A stretch of 64,000 nucleotides of DNA. Origin: Nitrospirota bacterium (lineage in GTDB: Bacteria; Nitrospirota; Thermodesulfovibrionia; Thermodesulfovibrionales; Dissulfurispiraceae). Shown piece by piece: positions 8,828 to 18,046 of this stretch. The stretch spans positions 1,600,001 to 1,664,000 of the forward strand of contig CAWBMP010000004.1 in the NCBI GenBank assembly GCA_963790025.1. Direction: 5' to 3'. Every line of letters starts with the position of its first letter. Within the stretch, counting starts at the first letter, position 1. Position numbers and translations under genes: made by a program. Under the pieces are notes generated by a model. That model was not told where the DNA came from and made no database searches. It saw nothing but the letters and a program-made list of their open reading frames with translations.

Positions 8828-9003
8828 TCAAATCCCAAGGAATGTTTCACGGTCAGCGTCATCACTGAAAATTGACTTCTTCTCGTTTCCACGAGAAGTA
8901 ACATGATATACAGCGCCAGGATACTTTATCCGCAACGGTCGAGCCATAACAGCCAATTTATCATATTCATCATGAACATGTAAAACATTATAGACCTGAC
9001 CCC
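8828..9003 (-). pseudogene. truncated Y1 HUH (RAYT-like) transposase with its upstream GGGGTCAGGTCT end motif
   Basis: ATG at 8947 gives MARPLRIKYPGAVYHVTSRGNEKKSIFSDDADRETFLGI then a stop, a typical RAYT-type N-terminus cut off before the HUH motif; GGGGTCAGGTCT at 9003-8992. Confidence 0.8.
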
Positions 9004-9011
9004 ATCTCCCC

Positions 9012-9107
9012 CGTTTTCTGAGCCGCGCAGACGTGGTACAAATCACCGGGAAAAGTTACCGGCTCAAAGATAGTGCTTGCAAAAACAAAAATGAAAATGG
9101 TAAATAA
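9012..9107 (+). pseudogene. istB: 3' remnant of IS21-family helper ATPase
   Basis: Translates RFLSRADVVQITGKSYRLKDSACKNKNENGK*, matching the IstB C-terminal I.G.SYRL motif; not in the ORF track. Confidence 0.75.
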
Positions 9108-11525: not shown

Positions 11526-12813
11526 GTCGCTCTATCAACTGCTCCTCACAGGAACACGCACGGGGCGGCGATAATTCGACACTGAATATTTCTACCGGCA
11601 ATCAGCGTCGGCCGATACCTATCAGCAGTAGCAGTCTCGTGGCAAACATGATAGAATTGATCCCACTGGTCCCGTAAGCATTACAATTTTCCATAGGCGT
11701 GAAGTAGACGTGCTGTGTCCTGACCATCAATTATGAGGAAGTGAGCTTTCTTGCCTGTTACATGGAGGGCAGAAACCTTTCCTTGTACGTCCGTAATAAG
11801 CGCATCTGCTATAGGTCCAACATATTGTACGACGAAAAGGTCCGCTGGCGCTGTGAAGAGACGTATGATCTGGTCACCGTTCTTTCCACAGTCGGCAATC
11901 GTCATCTCCTTTTGTCCAATACCCGGCCCCTTTAGCAGAAAGGCGGTAGCACGTCTGGCGCCAGCAACCACGACGTTTGCAGTGTAAAGGTCATTAATTT
12001 CACCACCCCAGTCTTTCTTGTGGAAAGGAACGCCAAGTATTTCCTCCAAAGCTCGCTGCACTTGGTCTTCAGACAAACGAACGAAGCCATTTTTTAGCAA
12101 TCCAAAAACTAAAGCGGGGTTCACGTCCCTGACTTTCTGAAAGCTATCGATGTCCTCAACATAAAGACGATCTTGAATTGGGAGGTCCGTATACTGCTGT
12201 AGTGAAGTCTTTCTTATTGTCTCTAGCCCGCGAATATAGTGGCCGCATTTACGTAACATGCTATTATATTTGTACTCTGCTATTGTTACTCCCCTTACGG
12301 CTCCAAGGGGAATATCTGGATTACGAAATAAATTTACTTCAAGTTCTGAAGGGAAAATAGACGTCAATTTGGCAATTATTTCTTCCATCCATTGGGAAAT
12401 CAATTCTTCGTACCGTAAGTAATCGATGCTTTCGCTGTAGTCTCCGGTTTGTTGTTTCACTGCATAATCTTTTTCGATTTCTATTTTTAAGGCATATCCG
12501 CGGTTAATTAATGTAACAATGTCTTCATTTGCCGACACCATTGGCATTTTGAGTCTCACGCTTACTCTCCTTCATAAGGCTATGGATTAGCGCCTAAATG
12601 GGTATTCACAATAAGTATAACCCCTAATCAGCAGAATTTTCTTCCACCTTTTTGAGTACTCGTAGGTTAAGGCTTCTGCCGAAGAGTCCGCTTCGTTTAG
12701 AAAACTTCTATATGCTATGCACAAGTTGATTTTCTCACTTACGAATGGAAAGTCGCGGAGAGCAGTTTCCAAGAAGAGTCGCTCTCTAATAGCCCCAAGT
12801 CCTCACAGGAACA
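11526..12813. repeat. bipartite direct repeat flanking the nuclease gene
   Basis: GTCGCTCT at 11526 and 12778, each followed after 9 or 14 nt by an exact TCCTCACAGGAACA (11543-11556; 12800-12813). Confidence 0.6.
11681..12559 (-). CDS. putative restriction-endonuclease-like (PD-(D/E)xK-type) nuclease with helical N-terminal domain
   Basis: AAGGAG RBS with GTG start; C-terminal E...DWGGEINDL...AFLLKG...DQIIRL...IIDGQD pattern resembles Mrr-like nucleases. Confidence 0.6.
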   Translation of the reverse strand: MRLKMPMVSANEDIVTLINRGYALKIEIEKDYAVKQQTGDYSESIDYLRYEELISQWMEEIIAKLTSIFPSELEVNLFRNPDIPLGAVRGVTIAEYKYNSMLRKCGHYIRGLETIRKTSLQQYTDLPIQDRLYVEDIDSFQKVRDVNPALVFGLLKNGFVRLSEDQVQRALEEILGVPFHKKDWGGEINDLYTANVVVAGARRATAFLLKGPGIGQKEMTIADCGKNGDQIIRLFTAPADLFVVQYVGPIADALITDVQGKVSALHVTGKKAHFLIIDGQDTARLLHAYGKL

Positions 12814-12969: not shown

Positions 12970-13467
12970 TCAGTACCATAAAACAACGGCGGCGATTGCA
13001 GTTGCTATTTTCTTAACCTCATGTTCAACTGAAACGCTCATGATAGAGGCAACAGCTTCACGGCGCATCTTCATGGCCTCCTGAGCCATCCGTTGTGTGA
13101 TGCGTTCAATATCCTGTTTCCTTCCTCGTGAGGAATATTCCATGATGACTCCTGGTTTGCTCTTATCTTGTGGCAAAGCAACAGCTACGGCTGCAGAAAT
13201 AAATTCATGTTCTAAGTCGGATGTAATCGCAGCATAGGCTACAGGTACCAATGCGCCATAGGGCAATCTAATAGGTTTGACCTCACAGCAATTGGGCGGG
13301 ATTATACTGCTTATTTTGACAAGGTTTGAATTACCAATCCCTGCATTTAATAAGGCTCCATCGAAAGAATTGAGTTCCGTGTAACCTTCAGCGCTACCAA
13401 CTACCATAAAGAATTTGTTTGGTGTTCCATAAATGACTCCTTCAAGAGAATTGCCTATTTTTTTCAT
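12970..13467 (-). CDS. pdaD: pyruvoyl-dependent arginine decarboxylase
   Basis: LNSFDGALLNAGIGNSNLVKISSIIPP contains the Ser-Ser autocleavage site; GVIMEY; C-terminal AAVVLW. Confidence 0.9.
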   Translation of the reverse strand: MKKIGNSLEGVIYGTPNKFFMVVGSAEGYTELNSFDGALLNAGIGNSNLVKISSIIPPNCCEVKPIRLPYGALVPVAYAAITSDLEHEFISAAVAVALPQDKSKPGVIMEYSSRGRKQDIERITQRMAQEAMKMRREAVASIMSVSVEHEVKKIATAIAAVVLWY

Positions 13468-13490
13468 GAAGTCACCTAATCAAATAACCT

Positions 13491-15095
13491 TCAAAATTTA
13501 TTCAGCTTAGGACGTATCTCTTCTTTGCTTATCGTCAAAGCATATATGGGATAGATATTCTCACCAAAGCGCTCATCAGCAACATGTTTAAATCCAAAAT
13601 ACTTACATAATCTCACTCCAACTTCCGTGATCGGAGAAGTAGCTACATACTTGGCATGTTCGAGCAGATAGTTTCCAACAGATCTGATTAAGAAACTACC
13701 CGCCCGCGAAGCGCCCCGTGAAGGGATAGTTGCAACAACTTCCAGAAAGAAATAATCCGTATCCTCATCTCTCAAAACCCCTAATTCAGAAAGATCAATA
13801 TCTGCAGATACGTCGCTGATAGAACTAATTACTCCTGCTAAAATGCGTTCAAATAGTGCCTTTTTAATGGGAACCAATGTCGCATAACCTAAGACCCAAT
13901 TTTTTTCGTCGCGAATTACCCAAAACACCCGCGGGTTATATGCATACCATCGTTTTAAGCTAGCAACAGAGAACACATGCCCATAGCCCGGGAAATTCCC
14001 CCATTCAATTTGCAGAATGCTTGATAATTCATCCTCACGAGCTAAATCAAAAGTGAGTTCACCGTGTATTTCGCGGTCTAATTTACTATATTCATGGTAG
14101 AGATAATCAGTGCCATGATCTTTTTCAATCTCGCAACTGAGAGGGCACCCTCCTCCACAGCGATCAAAATCATTACAAATCTTGCACCTTCCCGGCAAAT
14201 ATTCTCTATTTCTAAATGATTCGAGTATCTCAGAAGTATTCCAAATCTCCAGAAGCGGCCGTTCCAAAATATTGCCCAAACGATATCGTGGATCAGCCCC
14301 ACAACGAGAAAGAGCTCCTTCTATATTTACTGACGCAATTGATATACCCCACTTGCAGGGCGTCATATATTTCTTTAGTTCATTAGGAAGAATGCATAAT
14401 GGAAAGGGGTCTTCAACGGTTATTCTTATTCCAAGTTCTTTGTCAATTCTTTTGATGTCATTTAAAGACTGCTCTGCTTGTTGCCTTGTTAGCGTGAAAT
14501 TTGATGAGCCCGCTGCTCTGCCGAATGGAACTATTCTTTGCACAATGATGTAATTCAATTTCACTTTCTCTACGTTGACAATCCTATTAACTAAATCGAA
14601 GATTTTATCACTGATAGTGGGGAGAATATTAATAGCTATTCCTGTTTCCCGCCCAAGTCCTGACAATCTTTTCAATCTACCAATCACTGCCTGATATGCC
14701 CCCTCCCGGCGACAAAACTGATCATGGAGTCTGGGCTCGACATGGTGAATAGTGGTCTCAAATGCCGAGATATATTTTGCCGCCTCCTCTAAGGAAGAAT
14801 TTGGAAACAGTAAGGTATTTGATAAAATCGACACACGAATGCCATACGATTCAACAGCATACTTGGCGAGTTCTACGGCATGAGGATAGGCGCCAGGATC
14901 GCCGCCAAGCAACATAATGTTTTTGACTTTAGCAGAGCCGAGGGCGTCTACAACCTTTGTCGCTTTTTCTAGTGGAGGATGCTTCGGCTTGGCGGAAACA
15001 TCGTCGCCCGCATAACAAAAGGGACATTGATGAGAACAGACATAGGTAACGTGGAAGGCGACCGTATCAACGTGGTATTTATAGTCATCGGCCAT
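13491..15095 (-). CDS. radical SAM/SPASM protein fused to a C-terminal GNAT-like domain
   Basis: CSHQCPFC (CxxxCxxC) and LLGGDP; SPASM cysteines CKWG..SRC..GN..CKIC..RCGGGC; the last ~190 aa show a GNAT-like pattern (LGYATLVP, LEVVAT..SRGASRAGSFLI, GVRLCKYFGF). Confidence 0.85.
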   Translation of the reverse strand: MADDYKYHVDTVAFHVTYVCSHQCPFCYAGDDVSAKPKHPPLEKATKVVDALGSAKVKNIMLLGGDPGAYPHAVELAKYAVESYGIRVSILSNTLLFPNSSLEEAAKYISAFETTIHHVEPRLHDQFCRREGAYQAVIGRLKRLSGLGRETGIAINILPTISDKIFDLVNRIVNVEKVKLNYIIVQRIVPFGRAAGSSNFTLTRQQAEQSLNDIKRIDKELGIRITVEDPFPLCILPNELKKYMTPCKWGISIASVNIEGALSRCGADPRYRLGNILERPLLEIWNTSEILESFRNREYLPGRCKICNDFDRCGGGCPLSCEIEKDHGTDYLYHEYSKLDREIHGELTFDLAREDELSSILQIEWGNFPGYGHVFSVASLKRWYAYNPRVFWVIRDEKNWVLGYATLVPIKKALFERILAGVISSISDVSADIDLSELGVLRDEDTDYFFLEVVATIPSRGASRAGSFLIRSVGNYLLEHAKYVATSPITEVGVRLCKYFGFKHVADERFGENIYPIYALTISKEEIRPKLNKF

Positions 15096-15107
15096 GCTTT
15101 ATATCCT

Positions 15108-15677
15108 TTATACGCCAGTCGGCTTATTGAGCAATTTAATGACTTCTTTTAAACTCAGTACGATAAACGCACTCGTGATAATCCACAATATAATAACTCC
15201 GCTAATCGGTTGTGCACTGAATCGCCAAAATCCTATCAATGCTAAAAATAGACCCATTACGTCATAAATGATGATCGATGTTATTCGGTTTTCTTTAGGA
15301 ATAAAAATCAGATCCCAAAGTATGAAGATACAGTGCATAACGATGAAACCAGTGTAGAACAGCTGTATAGTCCCAGAAGTTTTTAGTCCATCCATTAAGC
15401 TCTTATAGGATAAAAATAAAAAAAATAGAACTATCAAATCAGAAATAAAAAGCTTATATGTGTAAACGCTCTTGGAAACATATGTGTACATATAGTCAAG
15501 GGAAAAGTTAACAACAATACCTACTGAAGCGATCACATAAATAACTTTACCAAGACCTTCACCAATATGAGAAAAATCATCTAAAAGGTTGTAAAATAAC
15601 GTACCAAGGATGGCTGGATATAGCAGAGACGTCATTAAGATATACGGCATTGAATTGCATTGATTTGAATTATTCAT
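15108..15677 (-). CDS. hypothetical polytopic membrane protein (about 6 TM)
   Basis: 189-aa, highly hydrophobic, AT-rich; ends 12 bp upstream of the radical SAM gene. Confidence 0.8.
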   Translation of the reverse strand: MNNSNQCNSMPYILMTSLLYPAILGTLFYNLLDDFSHIGEGLGKVIYVIASVGIVVNFSLDYMYTYVSKSVYTYKLFISDLIVLFFLFLSYKSLMDGLKTSGTIQLFYTGFIVMHCIFILWDLIFIPKENRITSIIIYDVMGLFLALIGFWRFSAQPISGVIILWIITSAFIVLSLKEVIKLLNKPTGV

Positions 15678-15752
15678 AGTACTGATAGGGAGTATTCTAA
15701 TCTTCTACTCTGAGCTTAGAAAGCACCTCCTCAGAATGATACAGCATACTTG

Positions 15753-16316
15753 TCATTCACTGCTAAGCGCTTCATAAAGTTTATTGGCTGATTTCTTACA
15801 ACTTGTTAAAATTTCTGGAAAGTTTGAAATTAAATCATCCTTGTTTAGGCAACCCTTCGCAGTCACAATATCAACAATATCAATTCCGGCATTTTCGCAG
15901 AAATATTTTACAGAATCAGCCGCCAATTTAATACTTTCGGCTTCTTCGCCTTCAGTTTGTCCTACAGCAAAAATGATAGCTTTTTTTCCCTTTAATGTTT
16001 GAGGTGCTGCCAAAGGATTTAAGCGATCAAAAAAGACTTTCAATTCCCCAGAAAGCAAGCTCCATCTCGCTGGCGTGCCAAAAATAAAAGCATCCGCCCG
16101 AGCCACGTCTGGTAAAAGCTCACGCATATCATCATCTTTTACACATTTGCCTTCGGCGTCACACTCTAGACACCCATCGCATACTTCCAATTTGACATCC
16201 CGTAAATGAATTAATTCAACATCACAATCTTTTGCTGTCAGCTCATGAGTTGCTGCTTCCACCATTGCGTATGTATTACCCCTTCTTGAGCTACCTACAA
16301 TTGCCAATACTCTCAT
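15753..16316 (-). CDS. iron-sulfur flavoprotein / multimeric flavodoxin (Isf-like)
   Basis: GSSRRGNT FMN loop; CDGCLECDAEGKC (CxxCxxCx5C); ADAFIFGTP; KVFFDR. Confidence 0.9.
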   Translation of the reverse strand: MRVLAIVGSSRRGNTYAMVEAATHELTAKDCDVELIHLRDVKLEVCDGCLECDAEGKCVKDDDMRELLPDVARADAFIFGTPARWSLLSGELKVFFDRLNPLAAPQTLKGKKAIIFAVGQTEGEEAESIKLAADSVKYFCENAGIDIVDIVTAKGCLNKDDLISNFPEILTSCKKSANKLYEALSSE

Positions 16317-16365
16317 TTTGCCCCCCTATAGTAAAGGACTGTTAAACATCTTGTATTGATTCAAT

Positions 16366-16393
16366 ATTATAGGTTAATGTCAGGTTAATGCAA
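16366..16393 (-). promoter_or_regulatory. sigma70-type promoter of the flavoprotein-to-pdaD operon, overlapped by an 11-bp-period direct repeat
   Basis: Minus strand TTGCAT-N16-TATAAT; CATTAACCT occurs twice (16390-16382 and 16379-16371). Confidence 0.6.
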
Positions 16394-16480: not shown

Positions 16481-17032
16481 TCAAACCGTTATCTTCTTCC
16501 TGTCAAAGTTTCTTAAAAATGGGTGCATATATTTATTATTGGATTTATCTTTTATCAAGACTTTCCAATCATTACCTGTAATAAACTTACGACAATTCTT
16601 ATTTTTGCATTTACAACGCATTTCAAATTTTGGATTTGATTCTATAAGACCATAGTCATAAGTTAACTCTTCGCCTTTTTTAATGTTTTTAATTGCAATA
16701 AAGTCCCCATTATTATTAAATCCGAGGTTACCCTCGCATGAGTGGTTAAAATACCATTCAATTGATAACTTATTGAAATCTAAGTTTTCTGGCGGGATAA
16801 ATCCTTCAGGAGTTCCAACACAAAAAGCCATTACTTTATTTTTAACGGCACTATCTAAATGAACATATTCTTTCCAGGACATCAGATGGTTAAAGTCATT
16901 TACTTTCAACCCTTCAGCAACCTTTTGCCCTTTTTTAATATTAGTAACCGCAAAAACGCCAACGCCACCTTTATGAATAAGAGAAGGCTTTAATTCGAGT
17001 AACACTTTAACAATGTTTCTTTGATTTTCCAT
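16481..17032 (-). CDS. SET-domain lysine methyltransferase with post-SET motif
   Basis: GVGVFA..IKKG, FNHSCEGN, GEELTYDY, and post-SET CKCKNKNC. Confidence 0.9.
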   Translation of the reverse strand: MENQRNIVKVLLELKPSLIHKGGVGVFAVTNIKKGQKVAEGLKVNDFNHLMSWKEYVHLDSAVKNKVMAFCVGTPEGFIPPENLDFNKLSIEWYFNHSCEGNLGFNNNGDFIAIKNIKKGEELTYDYGLIESNPKFEMRCKCKNKNCRKFITGNDWKVLIKDKSNNKYMHPFLRNFDRKKITV

Positions 17033-17684
17033 AACACTCAGATTTCTTAAATTTTTCTATTTCGTTATCAAATTTCTTTTCTATATCCCACATGCTCTCC
17101 AAAGAATGCTCTTTCTTTTCTTTTCGGAGACGAAACTCGATTGGTAATAATTCGTCATACATATCTTGAATATCCTCATATAACGTCTTATCGTCACCCC
17201 ACTTTTTTCTGATTTCTCGAATTGCTTCGTTAGTATAGTGATAATATCGCATAACGTACCATCCGATAGTTGCCCACACAAGCTCTTCTTTTAATACTCC
17301 ATTTTCATAATAGGAGGCTATCCTTTCTAGAAATTCTATAACTCGCTCAACTTTATTTAAATTATCATCGCTGAAACTCGTCATAGGCAGAACTGAACAC
17401 AACTCACATCTGGCGTTTCTCATGTCTTCACTGTTCCACTCTTTGTATAATTCTGTCAAAGTTTGTAATTCTAATTGTTTTTGAAGCTGTTTTCCCTGCC
17501 ACACAATTACTGCTGCAGTAATAAGCGTCAACAATAAGGTCGCCCACGCAGCATAGTCTACATCTAACTTTCGATTGATAAGTGCAGACCTCACTAGAAA
17601 ACCGATTATAAAGCCAGATCCCGACAAACAAAGCCAGATGACCCAATTGTGAAATGTTTTTATCTTATAAATAAAAAGTTTCAT
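17007..17684 (-). CDS. DUF4760-like membrane-anchored protein
   Basis: Two N-terminal TM segments, then EWNSEDMRNAR...VIEFLERIASYYENGVLKEELV; overlaps the SET gene start by 26 bp. Confidence 0.7.
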   Translation of the reverse strand: MKLFIYKIKTFHNWVIWLCLSGSGFIIGFLVRSALINRKLDVDYAAWATLLLTLITAAVIVWQGKQLQKQLELQTLTELYKEWNSEDMRNARCELCSVLPMTSFSDDNLNKVERVIEFLERIASYYENGVLKEELVWATIGWYVMRYYHYTNEAIREIRKKWGDDKTLYEDIQDMYDELLPIEFRLRKEKKEHSLESMWDIEKKFDNEIEKFKKSECYGKSKKHC

Positions 17685-17979: not shown

Positions 17980-17982
17980 AAC

Positions 17983-18046
17983 AAAACTTTACTGCACGAA
18001 ATGCAAAACTTTATTGCACAATTCTAAAACTTTACTGCATCCTACA
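17983..18046 (-). mobile_element. putative Tn7-like transposon end inserted 1 bp after the gyrB stop codon
   Basis: Minus strand begins TGTAGGA, then TGCAGTAAAGTTTT (18039-18026), TGCAATAAAGTTTT (18018-18005) and TGCAGTAAAGTTTT (17996-17983), period 21/22 bp. Confidence 0.7.

Follow-up and report, generated by a model that had tools for sequence, protein, structure and literature searches.

The 64,000-nucleotide stretch analyzed here (the window) comes from a Nitrospirota bacterium (GenBank assembly GCA_963790025.1, contig CAWBMP010000004.1, positions 1,600,001 to 1,664,000 of the forward strand) and carries a cassette of four co-oriented genes, which encode an Fe-S flavoprotein, a membrane protein, a radical S-adenosylmethionine (SAM)/SPASM enzyme ending in a GNAT-fold domain, and a pyruvoyl-dependent arginine decarboxylase (PvlArgDC, or ArgDC for short). 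All four were confirmed as minus-strand open reading frames (ORFs), separated by gaps of 75, 12 and 23 bp. The cassette belongs to a family whose invariable part is a pair of enzymes, a radical-SAM/SPASM protein and its dedicated oxidoreductase; to this core, a GNAT-fold domain and a membrane protein are joined as a set, and ArgDC is optional. We put at about even the chance that such cassettes are anti-phage synthase-effector systems, in which the enzymes would produce a small molecule, probably one containing an amine, to control a membrane effector.

With the radical-SAM gene as family marker, a protein search scored 8000 candidates and returned 104 matches, including 101 clear members of the radical-SAM family; by our own count, approximately 73 of these members have a GNAT tail and 28 (302-352 aa) have none. 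Two collection scans gave 55 loci, from which five other radical-SAM proteins (L013, L014 and L055-L057) and three duplicates (L022, L036 and L042) were dropped and to which the window was added, resulting in 48 non-redundant loci that span at least nine named phyla (hosts in Ignavibacteriota, Cyanobacteriota, Pseudomonadota, Omnitrophota, Bacillota, Bacteroidota, Verrucomicrobiota, Bdellovibrionota and Lithacetigenota). Loci with at least 1500 bp upstream and at least 900 bp downstream of the radical-SAM gene were considered well-flanked (n = 21). Co-occurrence of the cassette genes in other genomes had been set beforehand as the check that could refute the original prediction, and the genes were indeed found together across many unrelated genomes, with the same gene order recurring across phyla.

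An oxidoreductase is present in all 21 well-flanked loci, as an Fe-S flavoprotein in 16 and as a short-chain dehydrogenase/reductase (SDR) in 5; the two never occur together in any of the 48 loci, 7 of which have the SDR. A membrane protein was found in 18 of the 21 and a GNAT-fold domain, fused or separate, in 17. According to our count, 17 of the 18 loci with a membrane protein also have the GNAT domain, versus none of the 3 without one (Fisher p 0.003, for loci that are not independent and with two of the four GNAT-less loci near contig ends). The membrane proteins fall into three unrelated families, represented in 20, 8 (the family of the window) and 5 of the 48 loci and never by two kinds in one locus, and the type of membrane partner requires at least four changes on a FastTree phylogeny of 39 rows; the SDR loci require two on the same tree, a number that does not establish two independent gains. 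It is from this architecture, a conserved enzyme core with an interchangeable membrane protein, that the term effector is taken. ArgDC is found in 5 of the well-flanked loci and in 13 of all 48, and the exact four-gene set of the window in 2 of 21. The original prediction had regarded the four genes as one agmatine-linked unit: the genes do co-occur, but the conserved unit is the two-enzyme core with its GNAT-plus-membrane add-on and an optional ArgDC, and these counts do not bear out agmatine as the fixed centre of the pathway. The agmatine link is real but accessory. Variants lacking the membrane partner were seen in L040:448-6687, L043:3305-4608 and L050:8739-11102, where TPR proteins or a phosphoenolpyruvate (PEP)-utilising enzyme, an adenosylhomocysteinase-like protein (a link to the SAM cycle) and an extra Cys-rich domain, fused to the radical-SAM gene and duplicated before it, are among the genes.

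The membrane gene of the window (15108..15677, minus strand, 189 aa, no named family) is the candidate effector. Five or six hydrophobic segments are predicted in 7 of the 8 members of its family, which matches no Pfam or PADLOC family (none of 98 relatives matches PADLOC). It has 231 distant relatives at E<=0.001, and four of the best 150 of these are fusions of the membrane domain with GNATs of both cassette types: P0228 carries the atypical GNAT type of the radical-SAM protein (E 1e-13), and P0147, P0179 and P0190 carry the ordinary GNAT of split cassettes (E 1e-16 to 4e-15). No further convincing member was detected in 401 genomes of each of two phyla. The commonest partner, designated TM-PLD, has two transmembrane (TM) helices in 21 of 22 members and a soluble domain of the phospholipase D (PLD)/TrmB fold, which resembles Zucchini and NucT (Z 11.0, root-mean-square deviation (rmsd) 3.3, 123-127 residues aligned) and the TrmB sugar-binding domain (Z 10.1), with a sequence match to TrmBL2 (E 2e-5). 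A phospholipase D nuclease or lipase was considered for TM-PLD on account of the fold and dropped, the HKD catalytic motif being absent from all 22 members; we infer a ligand-binding domain instead. The remaining family combines two TM helices (2TM) with a Cys/His-rich domain, for which no solved relative was found. Searching solved sequences with profiles of the membrane families returned nothing useful, and no membrane partner matched a known transporter family. Among the roles of exporter, substrate and immunity factor that had been proposed for the membrane gene, the first two fit less well than an effector role, because the gene is one of three interchangeable unrelated families. One synthase beside swappable 2TM-sensor effectors is described for mCpol systems (bioRxiv 10.1101/2025.03.28.646047). 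A split form of the cassette, in which a pair of TM-PLD paralogues accompanies a separate GNAT gene and ArgDC, occurs in L010, L041 and L049 (and in the duplicate L042), and a small Cys-rich protein comes next after ArgDC in L010, L037, L041 and L053.

The domain assignments of the original prediction hold for all four proteins in Pfam, TIGR and structure-model tests. The radical-SAM gene (13491..15095, minus strand) encodes a 534-aa protein with radical SAM and SPASM domains by Pfam, whose CxxxCxxC and SPASM cysteines are invariant or nearly so in the family and whose AlphaFold model (pLDDT 88.8) contains a partial TIM barrel, which places it in the radical SAM/SPASM superfamily; it reaches no NCBIfam equivalog cut-off. 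E113, Q186, R187, E228, D229, R264 and D268 are nearly invariant, and the acidic residues E113, E228, D229 and D268 of the radical-SAM part, together with E452, are invariant in the family alignment.

The oxidoreductase slot of the window is filled by a flavoprotein gene (15753..16316, minus strand, 187 aa; PF03358 over cut-off, E 2e-25). Isf-like proteins have the four-Cys motif CxxCxxCx4-7C, and this motif is present in 29 of 30 family members, which together with the FMN_red fold identifies a dedicated subfamily of Isf-like flavoproteins. Sequence identities of the flavoprotein and the radical-SAM enzyme co-vary (Mantel rho 0.68 over 25 loci, with none of 999 permutations as high). The SDR that substitutes for it carries YxxxK. 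The closest solved relative of the flavoprotein is the flavone reductase FLR (E 2e-8), a substrate-reducing ene-reductase (PMC7862272). The flavoprotein had been suggested to be a plain electron donor, which now appears doubtful: because an SDR can replace it (in 7 loci) and its nearest solved relative is FLR, the oxidoreductase slot more probably reduces the product rather than feeding electrons to the cluster. An analogy of gene logic only is offered by AprD4/AprD3, a radical-SAM diol dehydratase and NADPH-dependent reductase of the apramycin pathway (PMC5461906), in which a radical-SAM enzyme likewise has its dedicated reductase, although the cassette loci contain no aminoglycoside genes.

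The GNAT-fold domain occupies approximately residues 345-527 of the radical-SAM protein (13515..14063, minus strand). Pfam misses it in the window protein, and PF00583 matches 10 of 29 homologous domains; the AlphaFold model shows the GNAT fold for the C-terminal ~190 residues (Z 15.9, rmsd 2.5, 164 aligned). The best fold matches are CurA GNATL (15.9), GphF (15.7) and SxtA (15.6), with Ard1 (15.4) tied within 1. The first three share a long insertion with the domain (Z 15.6-15.9, 161-164 aligned), but at 12-15% identity, tied with ordinary acetyltransferases and with no polyketide synthase or carrier protein near the cassette, the likeness is one of fold only. Glu364 and Glu452 are invariant in the fused domain. 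The canonical acetyl-CoA loop of GNATs reads R/QxxGxG/A, whereas in the fused domain an Arg (R464) stands at the usual first Gly in 32 of 45 sequences, and 37 of the 45 keep the last Gly. In split loci, the separate GNATs retain QRQGIG-type loops. Acylation by the fused domain, as proposed earlier, is therefore doubtful, and because of this Arg the domain may bind or condense an amine rather than acetylate it. A complex prediction for the GNAT domain and the window membrane protein scored 0.00, which bears neither way. Elp3 combines a radical-SAM domain with an acetyltransferase and shows the same order of radical-SAM and GNAT-fold domains; unlike Elp3, the cassette enzyme has a SPASM-type core and an atypical CoA loop, and no Elp3 model was present among the 25 best NCBIfam matches or the 50 best fold rows.

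From gene content, co-occurrence, folds and motifs we infer a substrate, a product, a toxic effector and a role in phage defence along the following lines. The radical-SAM enzyme would oxidize or dehydrate a small substrate, and the flavoprotein or SDR would reduce its product, much as AprD3 follows AprD4. An amine (agmatine, from the cassette or the host) would belong to the substrate, or the GNAT-fold domain would join it to the substrate or sense the two together. The resulting molecule would then control, by way of the GNAT-fold domain or jointly with it, the membrane protein, which would damage the membrane and stop the infected cell, either by activating this effector, in the logic of CBASS and Pycsar, or by restraining it until a phage drains SAM or polyamines, in the logic of Panoptes. 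We lean slightly towards the guard version over the activator version, since no phage-sensing domain was recognized and the inputs (SAM and arginine) are always present.

By architecture, the cassette resembles a known kind of system. Like CBASS, Pycsar, Thoeris and Panoptes (mCpol), it combines one enzyme module with interchangeable membrane proteins, including 2TM proteins with a domain of ligand-binding type, and it is rare, scattered and island-borne. Unlike them, it has no nucleotide cyclase, TIR or mCpol, no SAVED, CARF, STING, macro or CNBD sensor, and none of the nucleotide-signal synthases of these systems among its genes; its predicted enzymes are a radical-SAM protein, an oxidoreductase, a GNAT fold and ArgDC. 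It is a member of no described family among those tested. To our knowledge, all bacterial immune messengers derive from nucleotides or NAD. The more specific proposal that the messenger here is an agmatine- or polyamine-derived molecule made by radical-SAM chemistry, rather than a cyclic nucleotide or NAD product, and that three unrelated membrane effectors read it, possibly as a guard, is a tentative one and less likely than not.

A role in defence, which the original prediction had allowed for in chemical form, now has contextual support. Pfam was run on 131 of 210 neighbouring ORFs of at least 140 aa (cassette members and some housekeeping or antisense-looking ORFs were left out) and PADLOC on 58 hand-picked ORFs. 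Matches to restriction-modification, Old, Mrr-like, DruE and PDC proteins lie beside the cassette in about a dozen loci, and five DNA methyltransferases of two families were found in 0.33 Mb of loci versus 0.35 expected, a rough expectation drawn from 31 control genomes (92 matches over 87 Mb), which are relatives of the window's host and not hosts of the loci.

Several observations weigh against a defence system built on an amine-derived signal. Methyltransferase enrichment marks mobile islands generally, and one of the five is on a viral contig; many loci, including the window, have no recognized defence neighbour. PADLOC models gave no convincing match to the cassette, pVip covering only the N-terminal part, and the PycTM and 2TM effector matches are weak, in 4 and 2 of 21 members, and probably reflect hydrophobicity. 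Three of the 21 well-flanked loci have a TPR protein, a PEP-utilising enzyme or a 103-aa ORF in place of the membrane partner. ArgDC is missing from 16 of the 21. Of five tested hosts whose cassette lacks it, an ArgDC or SpeA-like gene lies elsewhere in three, and in the other two (completeness not given) no ArgDC was found elsewhere. By fold and by sequence, the radical-SAM domain matches best with the peptide maturases SuiB, SkfB and PqqE. Basic residues (R187, K/R253 and R264) are also conserved, to which phosphate or carboxylate would fit as well; as the acidic residues fit an amine, the residue mix names no substrate.

The strongest competing explanation, which we nevertheless regard as unlikely, is that the cassette is a small biosynthetic pathway for a modified agmatine or amine metabolite, or modifies the envelope, the membrane protein then serving for export, as an anchor or as an immunity factor; the original prediction had favoured this kind of reading. 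Such a pathway would readily account for the intact and tightly coupled ArgDC. In the window, the ArgDC (12970..13467, minus strand, 165 aa) scores 166 bits against the TIGR00286 cut-off of 107 and aligns with the PvlArgDC of M. jannaschii (1n2m/2qqd) at the Ser53-Ser54 cleavage site, Asp36, Asn48 and Glu110; the cleavage and active-site motif is present in 11 of the 13 cassette copies, from which decarboxylation is predicted, and in 11 of the 13 loci no more than 35 bp separate ArgDC from a cassette gene. It is the only copy in the host genome, and none of nine congeners has a PvlArgDC. Agmatine is probably used by the cassette: neither agmatinase/arginase nor agmatine deiminase was found in the host genome (98.8% complete), so that no obvious path leads from agmatine to the usual polyamines in this host. 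The earlier statement that neither agmatinase nor spermidine synthase is present is true of the cassette, but the genome has speE and a speD-family gene. Directly upstream of the host speE (L073:1063-2196) is a gene for a pyridoxal phosphate (PLP) enzyme that reaches no equivalog and that we take, by its motifs, to be ornithine-decarboxylase-like. Operons of the pdaD-speD-speE-speB type use the same PvlArgDC family, and L066 and L067 carry PvlArgDC beside spermidine-synthase- and agmatinase-like ORFs, whereas the cassette has no speD, speE or speB. Pairs of a radical-SAM enzyme and a reductase are likewise known in natural-product pathways (PMC5461906). A biosynthetic pathway for an agmatine metabolite is hard to reconcile with the presence of ArgDC in only 5 of 21 loci, with three unrelated membrane families, two of which have just two TM helices and a soluble domain and none of which matches a transporter, and with the finding of no conserved regulator or carrier protein in the cassette loci.

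The history of ArgDC in these loci appears mixed. Cassette ArgDCs do not form one clade (p-AU 0.013), an indicative result only, since the approximately unbiased (AU) test (LG+G4, 16 rows, with L023, L029 and L042 left out) used a group defined only once a first tree had been seen, and since long branches meet; the backbone of that first tree (mixture model, 19 rows) was weakly supported (52/69). The window and L015 are 61% identical in the radical-SAM protein and 34% over 106 residues in ArgDC, and the window ArgDC clusters with housekeeping ArgDCs from relatives of the same order (support 91/90). In L011 (10323-11717 and 6766-7044), a three-gene cassette lies between an intact gene for a SpeA-like PLP decarboxylase, the protein of which is below cut-off, and a decayed copy consisting of the last 93 codons (64.5% identity), an arrangement that may mark an insertion site and not a functional link. 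Phage-encoded polyamine enzymes are known, and phages are reported to manipulate polyamine and SAM pools (PMC9992855), while in P. aeruginosa, phage DNA replication is inhibited when intracellular polyamine levels are high (PMC9992862); this literature makes a link between polyamines and defence plausible and is not evidence for the cassette.

It is less probable still that the core works as a viperin-like chemical defence, in which the radical-SAM enzyme and the reductase make a direct antiviral (a modified nucleotide or polyamine) and the GNAT domain and membrane protein are a secondary add-on. A His stands five residues before the first Cys in all 88 sequences and aligns with the His of viperin-like VNYHF, viperins are among the fold matches (Z 20.3), 3 of the 21 loci retain the core without any membrane partner, and the inhibition of phage replication by polyamines (PMC9992862) would suit such a product. 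Prokaryotic viperins also resemble the cassette in being island-borne and in having a small-molecule substrate, as the cassette enzyme probably has. However, the protein is far under the viperin family cut-off (44 vs 180 bits, over residues 11-152 only), and it differs from viperins in its full SPASM domain, its GNAT domain, the obligatory reductase and the membrane partner. The Lys before GGEP in viperins has a triphosphate-binding role, and the position aligned with it is a Glu in 63 of 97 sequences, other positions of the viperin pocket not being reliably alignable. No nucleotide kinase was found to be conserved near the cassette.

The fold neighbours of the radical-SAM domain (SuiB, SkfB, BlsE, anSME, PqqE and viperin, Z 20-24) raise yet another reading, namely that the radical-SAM/GNAT enzyme matures a protein or peptide, either the membrane protein or an unseen peptide. 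Its closest solved relatives do modify peptides or proteins (SuiB Z 23.9, SkfB 22.9 and anSME 20.8), but the best score against a maturase equivalog is 89.9 bits versus cut-offs of several hundred. The model begins directly with the radical-SAM core and shows no N-terminal leader-binding domain, and no shared small ORF was detected among 399 candidates from the 48 loci (E<=0.01), although very short or fast-evolving peptides could escape this search. A small-molecule substrate is argued for by these two absences. A maturase would in addition need three unrelated membrane proteins as substrates and leaves the obligatory reductase unexplained, and we consider it improbable.

Mobility of the cassette, as originally proposed, is supported. 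Its occurrence among unrelated genomes is scattered, and the radical-SAM gene was found in none of 40 host relatives. In the window it lies approximately 1.7 kb downstream of gyrB, behind a transposon-end-like structure (17982..18046, minus strand; TGT and three 14-bp repeats spaced 22 and 21 bp) that directly follows the gyrB stop and bounds a low-GC island. A subterminal repeat array of this kind characterizes Tn7-like ends (PMC8649781) and is found here at one end. Of the putative transposon, what stands is this one end-like structure and its second copy elsewhere in the host genome (C4:1206203-1206374), but no inverted partner end was found genome-wide (search for the inverted repeat array with up to two mismatches). 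The first 42 bp recur at other sites in congeners G003 and G007. A PF09299 profile search, made with TnsB/TnsC genes in view, gave a match in no control genome. Contigs from sequencing runs cover the island in pieces, and none bridges it. The DNA 3′ of gyrB differs in every congener examined, which marks a hypervariable spot, and in several relatives this side carries TIR, restriction-modification and toxin-antitoxin-like genes. Chance assembly of the island, with ArgDC merely supplementing host polyamine synthesis, would agree with the speD- and speE-family genes of the host and with the clustering of the window ArgDC with housekeeping copies (91/90), but is very improbable given a gene order that recurs across phyla, an ArgDC abutting a cassette gene in 11 of 13 loci and the lack of a detectable agmatine-to-putrescine enzyme in the host.

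Further features of the locus and its surroundings were noted. The cassette lies in AT-rich DNA, as first described, its GC content of 40.4% being in the lowest 1.9% of 1027 genome tiles. A promoter of its own had also been proposed: a putative site (16366..16393, minus strand) is present, with a perfect TATAAT at 16366-16371, TTGCAT at 16388-16393, 16 nt upstream, and a CATTAACC direct repeat, but a consensus promoter scan did not list it and returned sites no more numerous than in shuffles (19 vs 17.9). An integron or REP-type origin of the intergenic DNA was dropped, as no repeated family was found apart from a single 12-mer present four times. At 16481-17684, immediately upstream of the cassette, a DUF4760 gene overlaps a SET-domain gene; neither was seen in other cassette loci. 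A 292-aa ORF at 11681-12559, nuclease-like by eye in its C-terminal half, matches nothing in Pfam, NCBIfam or PADLOC, and 8828-9046 is a piece of a repeated transposase-like ORF with more than 10 related copies in the genome. The second copy of the end-like structure (TGT, three spaced repeats and a terminator) sits after a PhoH-like gene, and both units are followed by low-GC or unknown cargo. The 3′ side of gyrB in relatives (L075-L082) includes a gene for a TIR-domain protein, a nucleotidyltransferase-HEPN-like pair with a Vsr-like gene, an MT-A70-like methyltransferase with an endonuclease, and a PRTase-like gene; in relative G005, the 3′ end of gyrB is present twice.

That no known pathway has this gene set, as first stated, agrees with the literature searched, in which no description was found; most subscription journals and all supplements lie outside it, and the family could be among the candidates listed in supplements to papers on defence prediction. 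In a protein atlas, the clusters lying closest hold unnamed radical-SAM(-GNAT) and hypothetical proteins, which serve as leads only. No match to the cassette family was found in plasmid and phage records, nor in viral contigs with the single radical-SAM protein or the TM-PLD alignment, whereas the radical-SAM family alignment detected one locus, on the same IMG/VR contig as L020.

If the synthase-effector interpretation is true, a module of radical-SAM enzyme, reductase and GNAT domain that controls exchangeable membrane effectors would bring a new chemistry into the signals of bacterial immunity and would link polyamine and SAM pools to a dedicated defence system. Even if the cassette does not serve defence, it represents a new radical-SAM subfamily of approximately 100 members, and since the gene set is small and clonable and the active-site residues are sharply conserved, the radical-SAM reaction is directly testable.

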